NCBI GenBank assembly: GCA_965652295.1
Contig: CBFGTS010000007.1
Coordinates: 161,873-225,872 of the forward strand
Origin: an uncultured Haloferula sp.
GTDB taxonomy: Bacteria; Verrucomicrobiota; Verrucomicrobiia; Verrucomicrobiales; Akkermansiaceae
DNA: 64,000 nt
Reading direction: 5' to 3'
Of the stretch, positions 12,313-21,228 are shown piece after piece. Both the position numbers and the translations under genes were made by a program. Under the pieces are notes generated by a model. That model worked only from the letters and a program-made list of their open reading frames with translations. It did no database searches and was not told the DNA's origin. Position 1 is the first letter of the stretch. Each line of letters opens with the position of its first letter.

Positions 12313-12452
12313 AGAGAGCGGCGCCGATGGAGCGCCGATTATGAAATCGGCACGGATGGTCCTGTGAACCGATATTCTCAAACCATGGTGGGATCGATCT
12401 TCGCAGCAGTAGCATGGCCGAGGCCGGGATCGTTGTGGACTCCGGCGTTCGG
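12228..12452 (+). repeat. Degenerate ~225-bp direct repeat, copy A (3' end of the 11926-12312 gene plus REP-like element)
   Basis: Aligns by eye with 13518-13742; contains GGAGCGCCGATTATGAAATCGGCA at 12329-12352. Confidence 0.85.
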
Positions 12453-13517: not shown

Positions 13518-13742
13518 CCGCGGGCGATGGCTGACTTTTTCGGCGCGGGTTTGGTCATTTCAACCGGCGTCTCTGGATCTCGCTGCTGCTGGCACTGGCT
13601 TGAGGGGAGCGTGATTGGTGGAGCGCCGATTATGAAATCGGCACGGATGGTCCCTGAACCGATTTTCTCCAACAAAGGTGGATTCGTCCTCGCAGCGGTA
13701 GCATGGGTGCGGTCGACATGGTTGCGAACTCCGGCGTTTCGG
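13518..13742 (+). repeat. Degenerate ~225-bp direct repeat, copy B
   Basis: Homologous to 12228-12452; identical 24-mer at 13620-13643. Confidence 0.85.
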
Positions 13743-14397: not shown

Positions 14398-15026
14398 GGG
14401 TCGGGATTCTAGACTTGGGGTGGAGGGACGGTCAGGCCGTCTTCAAGTCCTATCGCGGACGTCGGGGTGGACATTTCACGTTTCTTAACAAAATTCGCTC
14501 TTCGATTGCGCGATTTTGCCGCTTCTCTACCGCTTCGATCGGCAATTGCGATGCTGAGTCTGCTCAGATCCTGTCGAATCGGAGGTCCGGAAACGGGCTC
14601 ACGATCCCATCCCGAAGCGCCGCCCCGTTCTGAGGTGGAAATGATTACCCATCAGCGCCCAGACATGCACCCGCCTCGTGATTTTCACAGGCATGCCCCA
14701 GTCGCTCCAACCGTGTCACGCGACCACAACCGCGTCTCAAGTCGCTCTCGGCGTGAATTCAGAATTCTCGGACCCTCTTTCGCGCGCTGGGATCGGTCGC
14801 GACGAGGCGAAGATGGTGAATCGCAGCAGGAAGGACAATGACGGAAGAGCCCGATTCCGCCTCCTCATTTTTTGGGAAGCAGCGGCCCCGGCCAGGCAAT
14901 TGGAGCTTCGATAACGTCGCGCATCTCGGCACACTTCTTCGGCATAGATACGCCCTGGTCGTCAAGAATCCAATCTTGCACGATCCACCCGCTCCATCCG
15001 TGTGGATAAAGTGCTTGCGGAAGACG

Positions 15027-15323
15027 CGGGCAATGGGGGCCCGGCGTCGCCTTGAAACGACGTGATCGGCGTTCGCCACCAGCAGCCGACTCACCGCCGA
15101 GGGCACCCGTCCCGGGCGCGGCCCGCGTGCCATTGATACCGCCAGTTCGAACCGGCCCGTCCGGCTCGATCCGCCCCCGAACGCCCTCGAAGTCAACTTC
15201 AAGAAATCCCTTGCGAAGCTCTGGTACTACTGACCCCGAACGATTGACGGCGGGGGAGTTGGCGGGGTGCGGAAAGTGGCTGGACGAAGTCACTGCTGGC
15301 ATCGTTGGTCCGGCGTCGCACCA
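15027..15323 (+). repeat. 297-bp direct repeat, copy 1 (possible degenerate transposase 3' remnant)
   Basis: Near-identical to 16819-17115; one frame reads AMGARRRLETT*S...EVNFKKSLAKLWYY*. Confidence 0.9.
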
Positions 15324-15472
15324 GGGGAGGGCAGTGCTTGGAGGGGCGGAACGGCTCGGGCTTCGAGCGGGGGGTGATATGACACGAGAGCTGCGGCGGG
15401 TGAGGCCGGAGAGGAGCTTGAAAAGAGAGTTGGAGAGGCTGGACGAAATGCTCAATATCTCGGACCGGCCCC
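15324..15472 (+). pseudogene. Possible C-terminal remnant of a REP-associated (RAYT-like) transposase ending in an AAATGCTCAA-ATCTCGGACCG-CCCC end motif
   Basis: Reads AERLGLRAGGDMTRELRR...RELERLDEMLNISD; the same end motif recurs at about 17132-17159. Confidence 0.35.
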
Positions 15473-15486
15473 GATCGGGGGTCGCC

Positions 15487-15957
15487 TCAATCGCCTTTGG
15501 GTTCTGCTTTCTTCGTTTCTAGGTTGGAATCCGCGACGTAGTGAACGCCCATCGAGTGTGCCCCAAGTATAACCACCCTCTTGTAGCCAACCTTCAGCAT
15601 CTGCTTGGTGACCTCGTCAGCTCGCTCACGGATGAACTCGTTATCGTCCCACATAACCGTCTTGTCGAAATAGACTACGATCAGAGACTTGTGCTTCTCG
15701 TCGGTCAGAAATTGCTCAATTTGATCAAATTTGAGCTCAATCGGTGACCGAGTTCCACCTGTGATCACGCCGAGGCCAAGATCGAAATCCCTCGCCTTGT
15801 CATATCCGACTACTCTGTCCGCACTCTTCTCTAGCGTCCACATCGCATCTGCGGTGGCAGCATCTCCGTCGGCGAGAATCGGGTAGAAACCAAGGTTGAG
15901 GTCGTCAGCGCAGGCCTGTGAAGCGACTAATAGCAGTGCCAGAATTGAGCATTTCAT
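15487..15957 (-). CDS. Integron-type gene cassette ORF, secreted hypothetical protein
   Basis: Signal peptide MKCSILALLLVASQACA; ATG 5 nt after the GTTGCAG core site; ends over a GCAGAAC R''-like site; lower GC. Confidence 0.75.
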   Translation of the reverse strand: MKCSILALLLVASQACADDLNLGFYPILADGDAATADAMWTLEKSADRVVGYDKARDFDLGLGVITGGTRSPIELKFDQIEQFLTDEKHKSLIVVYFDKTVMWDDNEFIRERADEVTKQMLKVGYKRVVILGAHSMGVHYVADSNLETKKAEPKGD

Positions 15958-15962
15958 TTTTT

Positions 15963-16072
15963 CTGCAACGTAGAAGTAGTGACGCGCTCCACAAGGCGGA
16001 AACCGGGCCCCGGACCGAGGATCGAATTCAACTCGGGCGCTGTAGGGCGTCGCCACCCATGGCTTGCTCTGC
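15963..16072 (-). mobile_element. attC-like recombination site
   Basis: Minus strand: GCAGAGC (R'') ... GTGGCGACGCCCTACA / TGTGGAGCGCGTCACTAC imperfect stem ... GTTGCAG (R'). Confidence 0.7.
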
Positions 16073-16510
16073 TCGTTTGGTTTTGGATGTGAGGTGCCGC
16101 TGAACGAGTGCGCTGAAGAAGCCTGTTGCGCCTCCACAGATAGCAGCTAGAAGCCAGAGAAGGCTGAATGGATAGGCGCTGTTGAATCCACTACGACCCG
16201 CCATGATGAGAAGCCCCGCCACTGCGAATAGCGGAATGCAAACCCACGGCCTCCAAAACACGCTGGCAGGGTGGACGAAGAGGAACAACGGAAGGACGAG
16301 AAGTAACCAGGTGAGGCCGACATACCAAACTGAATACTGGCCGACAGTGAGAGGCATGAAGAACCACTGCGGTGACACGTCCGAGTAGGAGTAGTAGCGC
16401 AAAAACAAATAGACGAGCATCACGACCCACCCTGCCAGAGCACATCCAAAGCTAAAGATCCCGCGATGAATTGCCCGAACGTCGGAGGGTCTGTTGTGGC
16501 GTGTCTTCAT
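16028..16510 (-). CDS. Integron-type gene cassette ORF, 4-TM membrane protein
   Basis: 160 aa; ATG 5 nt after GTTCTGC; C-terminus (KRAEQAMGGDALQRPS) runs into the attC. Confidence 0.75.
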   Translation of the reverse strand: MKTRHNRPSDVRAIHRGIFSFGCALAGWVVMLVYLFLRYYSYSDVSPQWFFMPLTVGQYSVWYVGLTWLLLVLPLFLFVHPASVFWRPWVCIPLFAVAGLLIMAGRSGFNSAYPFSLLWLLAAICGGATGFFSALVQRHLTSKTKRAEQAMGGDALQRPS

Positions 16511-16515
16511 TCCTA

Positions 16516-16635
16516 GCAGAACGTCGAGGCCTCCTACGCCTGACCGGGGGCGAGGATTCGACTGTGGATTGAAGTTGTAGTGGTCATGGCGGCTGGAGCT
16601 GGAGGCGGGTCAGGCGTTAGGAGTCATGGCTTCCA
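16516..16635 (-). mobile_element. attC-like site, R'' end lost
   Basis: Minus strand CTCCTAACGCCTGACC ... GGTCAGGCGTAGGAG (15-bp stem with one extrahelical base), then GTTCTGC core site complementary to the cassette's distal GCAGAGC. Confidence 0.75.
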
Positions 16636-16818: not shown

Positions 16819-17115
16819 CGGGCAACGGGGGCACGGCGTCGGCTTGAAACGACGTGATCGGTGTTCGCCACCACCAGCCACCTCACCACCGAGGGCACCC
16901 GTCCCGGGCGCGGCCCGCGTGCCATTGAAACCGCCAGTTCGAACCGGCCCGTCCGGCTCGATCCGCCCCCGAACGCCCTCGAAGTCAACTTCAAGAAATC
17001 CCTTGCGAAGCTCTGGTACTACTGACCCCGAACGATTGACGGCGGGGGAGTTGGCGGGGCGCGGGAAGTGGCTGGATGAAGTCACTGCTGGCATCGTTGG
17101 TCCGGCGTCGCACCA
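16819..17115 (+). repeat. 297-bp direct repeat, copy 2
   Basis: Near-identical to 15027-15323. Confidence 0.9.
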
Positions 17116-17131
17116 ACCGATCCCGATCAGA

Positions 17132-17191
17132 AAATGCTCAAAATCTCGGACCGACCCCCAATCCGACCCCCAATCCGGACCGACCCCCAAT
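17132..17191 (+). repeat. REP/transposon-end-like motif with a triple CCGACCCCCAAT tandem
   Basis: AAATGCTCAAAATCTCGGA followed by CCGACCCCCAAT at 17151, 17163 and 17180. Confidence 0.7.
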
Positions 17192-17326
17192 CAGGAAAAC
17201 GGCAGGCGAGCCGAATGCTCATGAAAACGACCCCATTCAGAGGCAAATCCGCCCGGAAAGTTGAGCGGCAAGTCGCGCACAAGCCATTGATTGTCAGCAG
17301 GCCCCCGCGTCCAAAACTACAGAATG

Positions 17327-17368
17327 CCTGGCATCTTTTCCTGGCATCTTTTCAGGCATCTTTTCAGG
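17327..17368 (+). repeat. Tandem 12-13 bp repeat GGCATCTTTTC x3
   Basis: CCTGGCATCTTTT CCTGGCATCTTTT CAGGCATCTTTT CAGG, immediately downstream of pAgo. Confidence 0.8.
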
Positions 17369-17415: not shown

Positions 17416-18846
17416 TCACATGTAGAACCGGTAGGAGGCTTTGGGCGGATTGCCCTCAGGGAGCCAACGTAGGATGTTTCCTACGGTTCTCGCTGCGGTG
17501 ATGGTTATGGGCATGGTAGAGTCGATCTGGACGTTGTTCCAGTTGGTCTTTGAGAGCACCATGAGCTCTTCCATCAATTGCCGCATCCCGGTGTCTTTGC
17601 TGGGAATTTTGATTCCGAGCGTTCGTGGCACGTACATTCCGGGATATTCTTGATAGAAGTCGACGGATCCACGGGTGTAGAGGAATGCGTTTTTCTCATC
17701 GGCTTGTAGGTAGGTTCCGCGGAGTGGTGGATAGTATCCCTCCCGGAAAAGCCGTAAGTTGTCCCGGCTCATTGAGAGGAAGTCGCGGATATCGATTCCT
17801 GACGTGTCCAGGGCTTGGTTGAATCCATCCAGTTCCCCTTGGCTGTAGGGTGAGGATTTGTGGATGACGACGCGGGCAGGTTGGTGTTTGTGCTCAGCTC
17901 GGAAGGCCTTGAGGCAGTCGGTAATGAGTGCTGCCGAGTCCTCGGGGGTGAGGTGGTATTGTCGGTCGTCTTTTGAAAGAACAGCATCCCGCCCCCGGAC
18001 TGCGAGCCCGTGGCCGCGTTCGTTGAAAACGTTGGCGATGCTGGTTCGGACCTGGCTCTTGTCGGGTGTGACGTAGAAGCTGATTCCAATGTAGCAGGTT
18101 TTGTAGTCGGCCTCGGGGCGTGGAACACGATATGGGAACCCGCCGGCTTTGTAGTAGAGGGCGGTGTGAAAGTTCCACGCTCTGGTGGCTTCGTCCTGAA
18201 GGGTTCGTTGTTTGGAACGCTCGTCTTTCTCAGCCGACTTTTTCTTTGGGTCGTAGGTCGAGGGTCGAATAACCTGCACGGGTTTCCCGGCCTTCATCGA
18301 GAGGCCTTTGACGAGGTCATGGAATTCGAGCTTGAGCCGGGTTTTGTCCTTGGGGCGTTTGGATTCGGCTTCGTCGAGGTAATTGACCAGCTCCAGTGGC
18401 ATCGCGAGTAGGATCACGTCTGGTGATTTGTCTGCGAGTGTTTCGATGCCCTCAGCGAAAACCCTGGCCGCATGTTCGATCCGATTGTCGTAGGGCCAGT
18501 CTTTTCCACTACTGGTGTATTCCCGGGCTGCAAGAGACTGGGTAAGTGATGAGTCGGTGGTGACAGTGGAGCGGAAGCAGCAGCTTTCGTTGAAACCCGG
18601 AAATGCGGGAAAGAGGTTTTTCTTTTGGCTGTCCTTCCGGGGGATGATGTCTCGGCACTTCTCCAACCATTGGGAGGCACCATCGATCGTTTCCTGCGAG
18701 CCGATGATGGCCAAGCGGATCTTTTCGGGTCTGCGATTTTGATCGAGGTCTTGGGGGCCGTAGTCGATCAGGCCATAGCGGATATCGACGTGCTGGCCGC
18801 CGTCTCCGAATTCAAGTGGGGGTTCTGGGATGTGGGAGACTACCAT
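17416..18846 (-). CDS. Short prokaryotic Argonaute (MID-PIWI*, catalytically inactive)
   Basis: 476 aa, no PAZ/N domain; FHDLVKG, QDEATRAWNFHTALYYKAGG, CYIGISFY, RVVIHKSS, YPPLRGT, LYTRG, YPGMYVP, LSKTNWN, PITI. Confidence 0.93.
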   Translation of the reverse strand: MVVSHIPEPPLEFGDGGQHVDIRYGLIDYGPQDLDQNRRPEKIRLAIIGSQETIDGASQWLEKCRDIIPRKDSQKKNLFPAFPGFNESCCFRSTVTTDSSLTQSLAAREYTSSGKDWPYDNRIEHAARVFAEGIETLADKSPDVILLAMPLELVNYLDEAESKRPKDKTRLKLEFHDLVKGLSMKAGKPVQVIRPSTYDPKKKSAEKDERSKQRTLQDEATRAWNFHTALYYKAGGFPYRVPRPEADYKTCYIGISFYVTPDKSQVRTSIANVFNERGHGLAVRGRDAVLSKDDRQYHLTPEDSAALITDCLKAFRAEHKHQPARVVIHKSSPYSQGELDGFNQALDTSGIDIRDFLSMSRDNLRLFREGYYPPLRGTYLQADEKNAFLYTRGSVDFYQEYPGMYVPRTLGIKIPSKDTGMRQLMEELMVLSKTNWNNVQIDSTMPITITAARTVGNILRWLPEGNPPKASYRFYM

Positions 18847-20210
18847 AGTTCAGGTTGGTTCGGATCTTCGCTAGGTTCGGTCTCATCGTCGTCGTCATCC
18901 TCTTCGCTAAGTAGTTCAGCGATTCCAGTTCGTTGCCATGCATTGTCGTCGATTCCGGTGCCCAGCTCAAATTGAGCGGGCGGATCGAATGAAATAAGGT
19001 CGTAGCGTTTGGTGAGGTCACGGTCAGTGAAGATTGCTCGCCATAGCAAGAGGCTTCCTCGAACTGACGGATGGCGCTCTATTTGTTTGATTCCAGAGAG
19101 CAACTTCTCGGAGTTCCAGTATTCGGCGCGGCCGTCACTGGTAAAAAAGTAGGTTGGGGTGACTTCGAGGAACCATTTTCCACCGAGCCGCACGAAATTG
19201 GTGATAGCGGCTTTGTGACGGAAGTATCCCTCTCCCTCGTTACGATTTGAGGGGTGCCATTCGGCTGCCGACTGGGTGCCCGATTTCTGTAGCGACTTGG
19301 CCCTAATTTTACGCGGGTCTTTTTTGCTCTCCCAGATGAAGTAGTTGAGTTTCTTTTCCCCGTAATAGGCGACCTTTTGTTCGAATAGGTATTGTTTGAG
19401 GCAGAGGTTGAGCAAGTGGACGAAATGCCGTTTAAGATCTGGGTCGTCGGCAAGCGCCCAGTCTTCAGAGGAATTTTGTTCTATGGTGCCCGCTTCAACG
19501 AGTCGATTGAGCGGCCCATTGTTCAGGTCGAGGAAAGAGTAGACGGTTTCACTATTCAGGAAAAACTCCCTGAGGTGCAGGTTGTTTCCTGGGAGTTCTT
19601 TCAGTTCTTGGTAGAACCTTTCCCGGTCTCGATATTTCGCGGTTGCCGACCAGATCGTTTCGGGAAAGCTGGCGACAGGAAATAGGTTCGAGATGAGTTT
19701 CTCTTTCTTTGGAAGCGGGCCTAGGTGACTACCCCCGCCGGGCTTTGCCAGGTCTGCGAGGAGTTGCGCTGCCGAGCTATCGAATTTGTCAGCCGATTTG
19801 TCGAAACGGACGGTATTTGTGTCCTTGTTTTTTGGGTTGTCGAAGTAGGCTTTGATGTCCTTCCAGTAGGCCTCTTCAGTGCTCGGTTTGCAGACGATGA
19901 GGATGACCGGCACGTTGCTGTTCAGCCAGTAGTCGATGTCGGGTGGGCTACAGGTGAAAGAAAATGCGTTCTGCGAGTTGGATTGGAATTCAGTCGAAGT
20001 CGCTTTGACTTGGGCGTGGATTACCCGGCCGGTAGCTACGCGACTTGCGGATTCAACGATTTCAATGGTGCCGTCGATGCCTTGGTCGATGTTGGTAGGG
20101 TTCCATGCAAACCCCATGTCGAGTACGGCCTGTTCGACAAGATTGACCCCTTGCTGCCCAGTCAAACCGGTCAGCCCGAATTTCTTTCGGCGGTGGGAAC
20201 GTTTGCGCAT
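18840..20210 (-). CDS. DUF4365 (PD-(D/E)XK, DREN-type) nuclease-APAZ effector of a short pAgo system
   Basis: DQGIDGTIE...HAQVKAT nuclease motif, YW...PVILI; C-terminal EKLISNL...WFLEVTPTYFFTSDG APAZ-like region; stop overlaps the pAgo start. Confidence 0.88.
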   Translation of the reverse strand: MRKRSHRRKKFGLTGLTGQQGVNLVEQAVLDMGFAWNPTNIDQGIDGTIEIVESASRVATGRVIHAQVKATSTEFQSNSQNAFSFTCSPPDIDYWLNSNVPVILIVCKPSTEEAYWKDIKAYFDNPKNKDTNTVRFDKSADKFDSSAAQLLADLAKPGGGSHLGPLPKKEKLISNLFPVASFPETIWSATAKYRDRERFYQELKELPGNNLHLREFFLNSETVYSFLDLNNGPLNRLVEAGTIEQNSSEDWALADDPDLKRHFVHLLNLCLKQYLFEQKVAYYGEKKLNYFIWESKKDPRKIRAKSLQKSGTQSAAEWHPSNRNEGEGYFRHKAAITNFVRLGGKWFLEVTPTYFFTSDGRAEYWNSEKLLSGIKQIERHPSVRGSLLLWRAIFTDRDLTKRYDLISFDPPAQFELGTGIDDNAWQRTGIAELLSEEDDDDDETEPSEDPNQPELW

Positions 20211-20217
20211 TTGTATT

Positions 20218-20451
20218 TTACCCGGTGGCGATTTTGACGAGGACGGCTTCGATCACGGCGATGCTCATGGACTTCCCGGAGTCACGGATGGAGGACAGGG
20301 CACGTTTCCAGCGGGAGTCGCTGCGTGCGTTTTCTAGGAACTGGTGGCCTCGGTAGGTCAGGTCAGTGACCCGAAAAATGGACGGGAATCCTTGCTCGTC
20401 TCCGGGCGAGGGTTCAATCCCCGTTTCTCCGATTCTGCTTCTTTCTACCAT
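20218..20451 (-). CDS. DUF2513-like small protein, probably N-terminally truncated
   Basis: DLTYRGHQFLENARSDSRW resembles the LTwxGHeFLdxxRxxxxW signature; 7 bp upstream of the nuclease-APAZ gene. Confidence 0.6.
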   Translation of the reverse strand: MVERSRIGETGIEPSPGDEQGFPSIFRVTDLTYRGHQFLENARSDSRWKRALSSIRDSGKSMSIAVIEAVLVKIATG

Positions 20452-20867
20452 GGTGCGGAGTCGTAATAAGCAATACCTGCGGCTCTGTCGTATATGATAG
20501 TCTCGCCCCCGCCATCACTCTCGATCCTCTGGTAGATGAGGCCCGACCTTGCAGTCTTCGATCCATGGTCAGGTACTCCGGCAGGTCTCTTCGAAGAATC
20601 ACCGAAAACATCACCTTCGTATGCGATCGGTTCAATGATTTCGGCAAATTCCCTCGGAGCGAACAACGAGCGAAATTCGATCTCTGAAATCATAAATTTC
20701 GCAATCCTACTGTGTCCATCATCCCAGTAGTGAATCGCAGAGGCGCTTTGCGGTAAGCTGAGAAACGTGACTTCACTGATCGATGCATCTGAAGAGGTTC
20801 GTGGTGGTGCTCCTTTACAACCGAAGAAGATAAACGTAGCTAAAAGGATAGCGCCAAAATCCTTCAT
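20445..20867 (-). CDS. Hypothetical lipoprotein, possibly cassette-derived
   Basis: Lipobox FFGC; low GC; GCAGAA motif just after the stop, similar to the cassette ends at 15.5 and 16.07 kb. Confidence 0.7.
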   Translation of the reverse strand: MKDFGAILLATFIFFGCKGAPPRTSSDASISEVTFLSLPQSASAIHYWDDGHSRIAKFMISEIEFRSLFAPREFAEIIEPIAYEGDVFGDSSKRPAGVPDHGSKTARSGLIYQRIESDGGGETIIYDRAAGIAYYDSAPW

Positions 20868-21116
20868 TTCTTGCAAAGTTTTTATTCGTAGGGTCGAGGC
20901 TGGTTATATCCAGCGACTCTTTTTCGGGAGAGTGGCTGGAAATGCTTGATTCACAAGGATTTTTCCGGGCTGAGTGCGTGTATCGGCTGAGGTAGGAGTG
21001 TGTTTCAGGGGATGGAAGCGGGAGGGTGATATAGGCGGTCTTCGGCCGATGGTGGGGTGCCGCGGAGTCGGGTAATGACGATCGTCGCAGGGACACTCCG
21101 CGTCACCCGGGATGCA

Positions 21117-21228
21117 TTCACAACCATGCCGGCCGCGGGCATGCTACCGCTGCGGGGATAGATTCCGACATTTCGGGTGAGATGGAGAGGCGGGGACCAT
21201 GCCATGCCGATTTCATAATCGGCGCTCC
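21117..21228 (-). repeat. Inverted third copy of the ~115-bp REP-like element
   Basis: Reverse complement reads GGAGCGCCGATTATGAAATCGGCA...ATGGTCC...CGCAGCGGTAGCATG...CATGGTTGTGAA, matching 12329-12440 and 13620-13730. Confidence 0.85.

Follow-up and report, generated by a model that had tools for sequence, protein, structure and literature searches.

A SPARDA-type short Argonaute gene pair within decayed integron surroundings in an uncultured Haloferula

A pair of genes in an uncultured Haloferula sp. (GenBank assembly GCA_965652295.1) raises the questions of whether it belongs to a known class of Argonaute defence systems, how it reached its present place and whether it is likely to act there. 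The pair, a short prokaryotic Argonaute (pAgo) gene and a DREN(DUF4365)-APAZ effector gene, lies within a stretch of 64,000 nucleotides (contig CBFGTS010000007.1, positions 161,873–225,872 of the forward strand), called the window below. A sequence-only reading had described it as an intact, horizontally acquired SPARDA-type system in a PVC-type bacterium. The results reported here indicate that the pair very probably is an intact, horizontally gained SPARDA of short-pAgo clade S2B acting in abortive defence, a view that leans on analogy with characterised relatives. As that reading had it, two overlapping minus-strand genes are present, both frames are uninterrupted, and the nuclease residues tested by mutation in relatives are kept. 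DREN-APAZ stands upstream and pAgo downstream in the same operon, with a 7-nt overlap in which the pAgo start codon sits within the last Trp codon and the stop codon of the effector (Table 1). The same overlap, with equivalent start codons, is found in two related loci (L001 and L062). The GC content, said to be lower than that of the surroundings, is 55.4% for the pAgo gene and 52.2% for the effector gene compared with 63.5% for the genome, ranking in the lowest 1.6% and 0.6%, respectively, of 1735 crudely called long open reading frames (ORFs); GC at third codon positions (GC3) is less extreme (19th percentile for the pAgo gene and 6th for the effector gene). Contigs of run X1, which may be the source sample, cover most of the region without differences, including the upstream junction, and pieces of both genes, with 0–2 differences, are also present in run X3, which comes from another study.

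The pAgo consists of MID and PIWI domains only, as proposed earlier, and aligns end to end with SPARDA Argonautes. It matches the PADLOC model pAgo_I (1.9e-156) and PDB chains of solved systems (9qbp_B, 1e-95; 9qbl_B, 1.4e-92; 9jsb_A, 3.1e-80), and its AlphaFold model (pLDDT 90.2) gives TM scores of 0.85–0.90 against SPARDA Argonautes in Foldseek. Pfam Piwi had no match on the protein and NCBIfam likewise none, so that the PIWI assignment comes from PADLOC, the PDB sequence matches and AlphaFold/Foldseek; of the Pfam families anticipated for the pair, DUF4365 was found and Piwi was not, the PIWI fold itself being supported by the structural models. The motifs GISF (residues 254–257) and HKSS (329–332), named earlier as replacing the catalytic tetrad, are present. 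An HH-align comparison with TtAgo (probability 94.6%) places S331 on the catalytic D546, a change that alone would break the tetrad. The loss was mapped at the D546 position; MAFFT misaligned the positions of D478, E512 and D660. The TtAgo residues themselves were checked, and the numbering of the tetrad is presumably D478/E512/D546/D660. Lacking a DEDX tetrad, the PIWI domain is predicted to be catalytically dead. GISF is identical in NbaAgo, which has been described as having no catalytic tetrad (bioRxiv 10.1101/2023.06.08.544223; here and below, papers are cited for the portions of their text that were available).

The effector carries Pfam DUF4365 at residues 19–154 (3.7e-31), and the PADLOC model Aga_REase-PNTD1-PNTD2 matches it at 1.6e-122. 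Matches to the Eae, Xau and Nba DREN-APAZ chains in the PDB range from 2e-47 (9qbp_A) to 1e-41 (9jsb_D). Its AlphaFold model has a pLDDT of 89.7, with values <50 in the tail; SPARDA chains rank first in Foldseek and make up all the top matches, with TM scores of 0.79–0.87 against APAZ-only chains. The APAZ-like C-terminus with an acidic tail that had been read from the translation is therefore supported by fold matches and by a net charge of -13 in the last 35 residues; the role of such a tail has been described for the Xau and Eae systems (bioRxiv 10.1101/2025.04.08.647717). The D..D..QxK nuclease-type N-terminus was likewise recovered: Nba E37/D41/Q60/K62 correspond to D42/D46/Q67/K69 of the window effector (residues were mapped to NbaSPARDA by eye on HMMER alignments). 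Mutation of D41, Q60 and K62 in Nba impaired or abolished activity (PMC12205087; bioRxiv 10.1101/2023.06.08.544223), and E37, D41, Q62 and K64 matter by mutation in Xau (bioRxiv 10.1101/2025.04.08.647717). Among 150 representatives, the same columns hold D or E (148), D (148), Q (148) and K (137, with R in 11).

At least five SPARDA systems have already been characterised, and the pair is an ordinary member of this class: the SPARDA-type identity given earlier agrees with both PADLOC models and, at the level of sequence as well as of predicted fold, with the solved chains of Xau, Eae and Nba. The best PDB matches for both proteins are XauSPARDA from Xanthobacter autotrophicus (9QBL/9QBQ/9QCC) and EaeSPARDA from Enhydrobacter aerosaccus (9QBP). 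These share with the window the DREN-APAZ then pAgo order, an Ago TM score of about 0.88–0.90, the E/D-D-Q-K nuclease centre, the acidic tail and the g2 Q/N contacts, at structural-alignment identities of about 33–36% (Ago) and 22–28% (effector). They differ in having an RK/W pocket with N179 reading 5'-A, whereas the window has HK/R with E174, and in a helix-1 Glu within an alphaproteobacterial-type branch, where the window has Val and falls in a separate branch. NbaSPARDA from Novosphingopyxis baekryungensis (9JSB/9JSZ/9JT2/9VX6) has D41/Q60/K62, K187, Q224, N232 and K240 in common with the window, an identical GISF and an identical or similar PIWI–PIWI filament set, but its R183, N181, W201 and E16 are replaced and 5 of 7 tetramer residues differ. 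TmuRE-Ago from Thermocrispum municipale (PMC10810196) and CmeSPARDA from Cupriavidus metallidurans (as cited in bioRxiv 10.1101/2025.04.08.647717) also combine DUF4365-APAZ with a short pAgo and a QxK active site. The pAgo is related to that of SPARHA (PDB 9OM4, PMC12738770; 9om4_B, 9.5e-68) and, at about 1e-36, to SPARTA, but the window effector is DUF4365 and not the HNH, TIR, SIR2 or SMEK of SPARHA, SPARTA and SMEK-APAZ systems. The sequence-only reading overrated the novelty of the pair, given that existing PADLOC models cover both genes, that at least five systems are characterised and that, of 8000 scored candidates, 3631 reach E<=1e-20 against the pAgo; it also missed the HK-type pocket, the absent helix-1 Glu and the integron context. 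In the open-access literature searched, SPARDA and Verrucomicrob were not mentioned jointly; subscription papers (including the journal version on CmeSPARDA) and preprint supplements lay outside the search and may list the lineage. Among the matches listed, papers joining Argonaute and Verrucomicrob concern other Argonautes or surveys. As far as that literature shows, the pair would be the first verrucomicrobial example of SPARDA; the picture of how short Argonautes defend cells is unchanged by it.

The closest named record is from Haloferula sp., Verrucomicrobiota (pAgo 80%, effector 66% identity), in keeping with the PVC-type host suggested before. Full-length DREN-APAZ occurs in 2 of 301 family genomes and 4 of 401 phylum genomes, the window genome (G000) included. 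Three copies with about 80% identity (window, L001 and L062) stand in unrelated surroundings, which for L001 are DUF2513 and DUF1257 genes (a DUF1257-type element) and for L062 a defence-island-like region, its neighbours judged by eye. DNA similarity stops at the gene pair or, for L001, at DUF2513. Since GC is low, occurrence is patchy and the close copies have three unrelated neighbourhoods, horizontal gain, as claimed earlier, is well supported by these sequence comparisons; no donor is named. The pair has been under long-term purifying selection, with dN against L001 of 0.14 and 0.27 for the two genes and a saturated dS of about 2–3. No pre-insertion site was definable among the five closest relatives by flanking glycosyltransferase, because all they share is the two glycosyltransferase genes and, in one relative, a short REP-like palindrome. 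Short pAgos as such occur in 6 of 35 same-genus genomes with SMEK, SEFIR/TIR or DREN partners. Those of L009 and L010 (genomes G001 and G003; SMEK-APAZ, by Pfam in G001 and alike in G003) and L011 (G023; SEFIR/TIR-APAZ) form one branch apart from the window pAgo, which suggests effector swapping within it.

To the gene identity, folds, conserved residues, intact frames and patchy distribution observed here, the Nba, Xau, Eae and Tmu systems add by analogy complex formation, guide use, filament formation and killing. The two proteins would form a heterodimer; its APAZ part would take the place that the N-lobe has in long Argonautes, and at rest the nucleic-acid groove would be closed by the acidic tail. 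The Argonaute would load RNA guides of ~20 nt from abundant transcripts. Once a guide paired with single-stranded plasmid or phage DNA complementary to it, the tail would be displaced and the PIWI sensor loop flipped. The complexes would polymerise into a filament via PIWI–PIWI contacts, four DREN domains would tetramerise, and the tetramer would cut DNA non-specifically, resulting in death or arrest of the cell. A SPARDA-like mechanism is likely because the nuclease residues, acidic tail and PIWI–PIWI contacts are kept. In the last set, Nba E253/F256/R285/R287/K324/E360 correspond to E245/Y248/R277/H279/R316/D352 in the window (two identical, three conservative, one R-to-H), and loss of the set in Nba abolishes filament and defence (PMC12205087). 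Two of seven DREN tetramer residues (Nba reference) are identical, and most MID–MID and MID–PIWI contact residues of Nba differ. Several points weigh against a working defence system. The pair is known here from its sequence and predicted folds alone. Its surroundings are decaying; the loss of the 5' end of a neighbouring DUF2513 gene means that the donor's promoter has probably been lost, and a promoter scan stayed at chance level (1 found, 2.1 expected). Nba E16 in helix 1 is V22 in the window effector. In addition, robust protection was not seen when Xau and Eae were challenged with 12 phages (bioRxiv 10.1101/2025.04.08.647717), which makes anti-phage action less certain than anti-plasmid action.

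The surroundings of the pair are those of a decayed integron (Table 1). The att labels used here come from comparison within this genome and from general integron anatomy rather than from a curated model. On contig C18 (G000:C18:484-3001; L013, L014), a broken integron-integrase-like gene is followed just downstream by an attI-like copy and then by cassettes with attC-like ends in the same direction. Further copies of the attI-like region lie at C11:87617 and C4:218902, both immediately ahead of an ORF start, and a partial one at C14:55211. No integrase was found near the attI-like site of the window; the integron-integrase-like gene in another part of the genome is fragmented and scores below the cut-off. 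This one genome thus appears, from these alignments, to hold several integrase-less integron platforms; a crude genome-wide attC pattern search gave 5 matches, 2 of them credible. Integrase-less arrays and integrons are known in Verrucomicrobiota (PMC8618304). In L001 the DUF2513 gene is whole (116 codons, profile positions 3–98) and directly upstream of DREN-APAZ, and the 237 L001-like nucleotides continue from the window remnant into the DREN start; the remnant was therefore apparently carried along from the donor locus. On the simplest reading, the first attC was split when about 3.8 kb of mosaic DNA came in. The repeat remnant 3' of the pAgo gene has partial matches at contigs C11, C20 and C6, the C20 gene being Y1_Tnp. 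A group II intron was considered for its 297-nt repeat and dropped, since Rfam has no match to it and Y1-transposase-type ends lie right beside it. Rfam and ARAGORN gave no match in or near the locus, with a single partial tRNA at the window end. Short tandem repeats lie 3' of the pAgo gene (17147–17192 and 17318–17365), and a run X3 contig over 17320–17976 has a 25-base gap.

Table 1. The gene pair and its neighbouring features in the window (aa, residues of the effector).
Feature	Position	Strand	Remarks
Short pAgo gene	17416–18846	minus	476 aa; no internal stop codons
DREN(DUF4365)-APAZ gene	18840–20210	minus	456 aa; no internal stop codons
Effector domains	aa 19–154; about aa 165–430; aa 431–456		nuclease; APAZ; acidic disordered tail
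attI-like platform copy	20877–21092	minus	integrase-less, core looks degenerate; 80–83% identity to three copies, 78% to partial fourth
Cassette 1 after attI-like site	20445–20876	minus	about 140 aa without a family match; by eye, N-terminus lipoprotein-like; GC 48.6%
attC-like stub	20433–20438	minus	R'' box alone left; at DUF2513-remnant junction; read against complete C18 site; X1 contig bridges
DUF2513 3' remnant	20218–20403	minus	Pfam profile positions 64–98 only; 67% nt identity to L001 over 237 nt
Repeat remnant 3' of pAgo	16819–17200	plus	297-nt duplicate of 15027–15323 (96% direct repeat) and Y1-transposase-type end
attC-like site	16516–16632	minus	no R'' box; 78% identity over 115 nt to C18 attC-like site; also C21, C4 copies
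Cassette 2	15962–16510	minus	160-aa membrane-like protein; complete attC-like site at 15962–16072
Cassette 3	15487–15957	minus	156 aa; attC-like site cut after R'' box
Decayed Y1 (REP-associated-type) transposase remnant	14633–15472	plus	HUH-motif fragment; pieces match Y1_Tnp gene G000:C20:3964-4968

This context allows other explanations of the pair, one being a true gene cassette, excisable and shuffled by an integrase. The pair has the orientation of the array and lies between the attI-like site with cassette 1 and the further cassettes, the upstream stub and the downstream site complement each other as if one attC had been split by insertion, and integrons are known as stores of defence cassettes (bioRxiv 10.1101/2024.07.02.601686, the available main text of which does not mention Argonaute or pAgo). 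No attC follows the pAgo stop at 17416, however; the next attC-like site, which lacks R'', begins only at 16632, beyond the transposase remnants and about 780 nt from the stop. The pair also carries a piece of its former neighbour gene, its copies with ~80% identity sit in the DUF1257-type element and the defence-island-like region, and none of 85 related loci shows attI homology. With no attC of its own and no attI homology in those loci, the pair is better seen as cargo in a decayed array, and a cassette is highly improbable. A genuine SPARDA silent in this genome, that is, a recent promoterless passenger among integron and transposase remnants, is a less remote prospect, if still an unlikely one. 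The cut DUF2513 gene, the degenerate-looking attI-like core beside a missing or broken integrase and the absence of a promoter above chance all point that way, and the dN/dS against L001 is a trace of old selection rather than of selection at the present site. On the other side, both frames have stayed intact next to broken attC-like sites and a broken transposase, a 1140-nt DREN piece with only 2 differences was found in run X3 from the second study, and the slot behind the first cassette is usually an expressed integron position.

A further alternative concerns biochemistry: the HK/V22 branch may work differently from Nba and Xau in guide chemistry or 5' base, in a weaker or differently built active site, or in activation without the same filament. 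This was considered rather unlikely; the probabilities assigned to the working system, to silence and to distinct branch biochemistry overlap. The MID 5' pocket of the window pAgo (H176/K180/Q217/N225/K233) is of the HK type, with Nba R183, N181 and W201 replaced by H176, E174 and R194; the Nba phosphate lysines K187/K240 and g2 contacts Q224/N232 are kept. H stands at the pocket position in 113 of 120 homologues among the matches listed. All 10 plasmid DREN operons examined, a choice of roughly one per organism from 24 plasmid records, are RK/W, and the verrucomicrobial DREN operons (4 of 4, window included) are HK/R. In a quick tree of 64 rows, from which 5 partial rows were left out, the window pAgo belongs to a group of 49 rows and the 10 plasmid proteins stand apart from it, with SH-aLRT support of 96 for each; the tree was rooted at the midpoint, had SH-aLRT as its only support measure and carried a long-branch warning. 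Among 81 related loci (the best 80 of 564 metagenomic loci and one viral locus), 64 have a whole DREN-APAZ upstream, with H at the pocket position in 56, R in 7 and a gap in 1, in a sample biased towards HK because it was drawn with an HK-rich query. Another 12 have an APAZ with a cut or different N-terminus, and 5, mostly at contig ends, have none. As for helix 1, E16 has been named as a catalytic-pocket residue of Nba (PMC12774872, where the available text was not found to describe a single E16 mutant). Position 22 is V or I in 119 of 150 representatives and in 58 of 60 metagenomic partners, Glu occurring in only 9 of the 150; in the 60 partners the catalytic Asp is invariant and Gln/Lys nearly so. 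V22 is thus a branch trait and not decay, and the missing Glu is treated, from these alignments, as a subgroup trait that does not define the family. An HK pocket without the 5'-A contacts, together with Val for the helix-1 Glu, is by the same comparison common to a large metagenomic branch.

TmuSPARDA already prefers 5'-OH, 5'-U guides (PMC10810196), so that guide rules vary within SPARDA. However, HK and RK are described short-pAgo motifs and HK is near-consensus (PMC6299218), the PIWI–PIWI contacts are kept, and modelling in the Xau paper suggested that filaments may form in all systems examined (bioRxiv 10.1101/2025.04.08.647717). Helix-1 Glu is also missing in 4 of 10 RK-type plasmid partners, so that the HK pocket and the loss of Glu are not strictly coupled. 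MapSPARTA has a pocket of the HK type. It still prefers 5'-A guides (PMC9097488). The guide 5' base preference of the window pAgo is not predictable; it probably differs from strict 5'-A. It is also conceivable, and again regarded as rather doubtful, that the pair represents a large SPARDA branch without a solved structure (HK/R pocket, helix-1 Glu absent), in which the guide 5' rule differs and the DREN active site is built in another way; after its insertion into an attC, the pair may here have come under transcription from an orphan integron platform. An intact SPARDA acting like its characterised relatives remains the preferred reading. SPARDA has been used for nucleic-acid detection free of a protospacer adjacent motif, with the strict 5'-AU guide rule as a limit (PMC12205087; bioRxiv 10.1101/2025.04.08.647717). 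Its differently built 5'-base pocket makes the pair a sensible next system to purify, and it would test whether helix-1 Glu is dispensable for DREN catalysis.

Some minor observations were made on relatives and repeats. L002 (3515–4576) holds a frameshifted, 5'-truncated pAgo with 52% identity beside genes that look mobile-element-like; no APAZ partner was found within the locus. Viral contigs yielded one distant locus (28%; L142:1186-5488), in which a short pAgo follows a protein of 937 aa; this begins, as judged by eye, like SIR2, continues through a long middle part and has APAZ at its C-terminus. In a Phaeobacter plasmid copy (L038:2168-3502), DREN and APAZ are annotated as two separate ORFs. 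The DREN-APAZ relatives P0139, P0206 and P0184 are 120–160 residues longer than usual, P0139 and P0206 having about 130–150 extra N-terminal residues that may form an additional domain. A REP-like palindrome lies at 12325–12352, 13616–13643 and 21201–21228 of the window and has many copies in the genome, often within repeats of ~110–220 nt beside PEP-CTERM genes; the genome has 12 Y1_Tnp matches.

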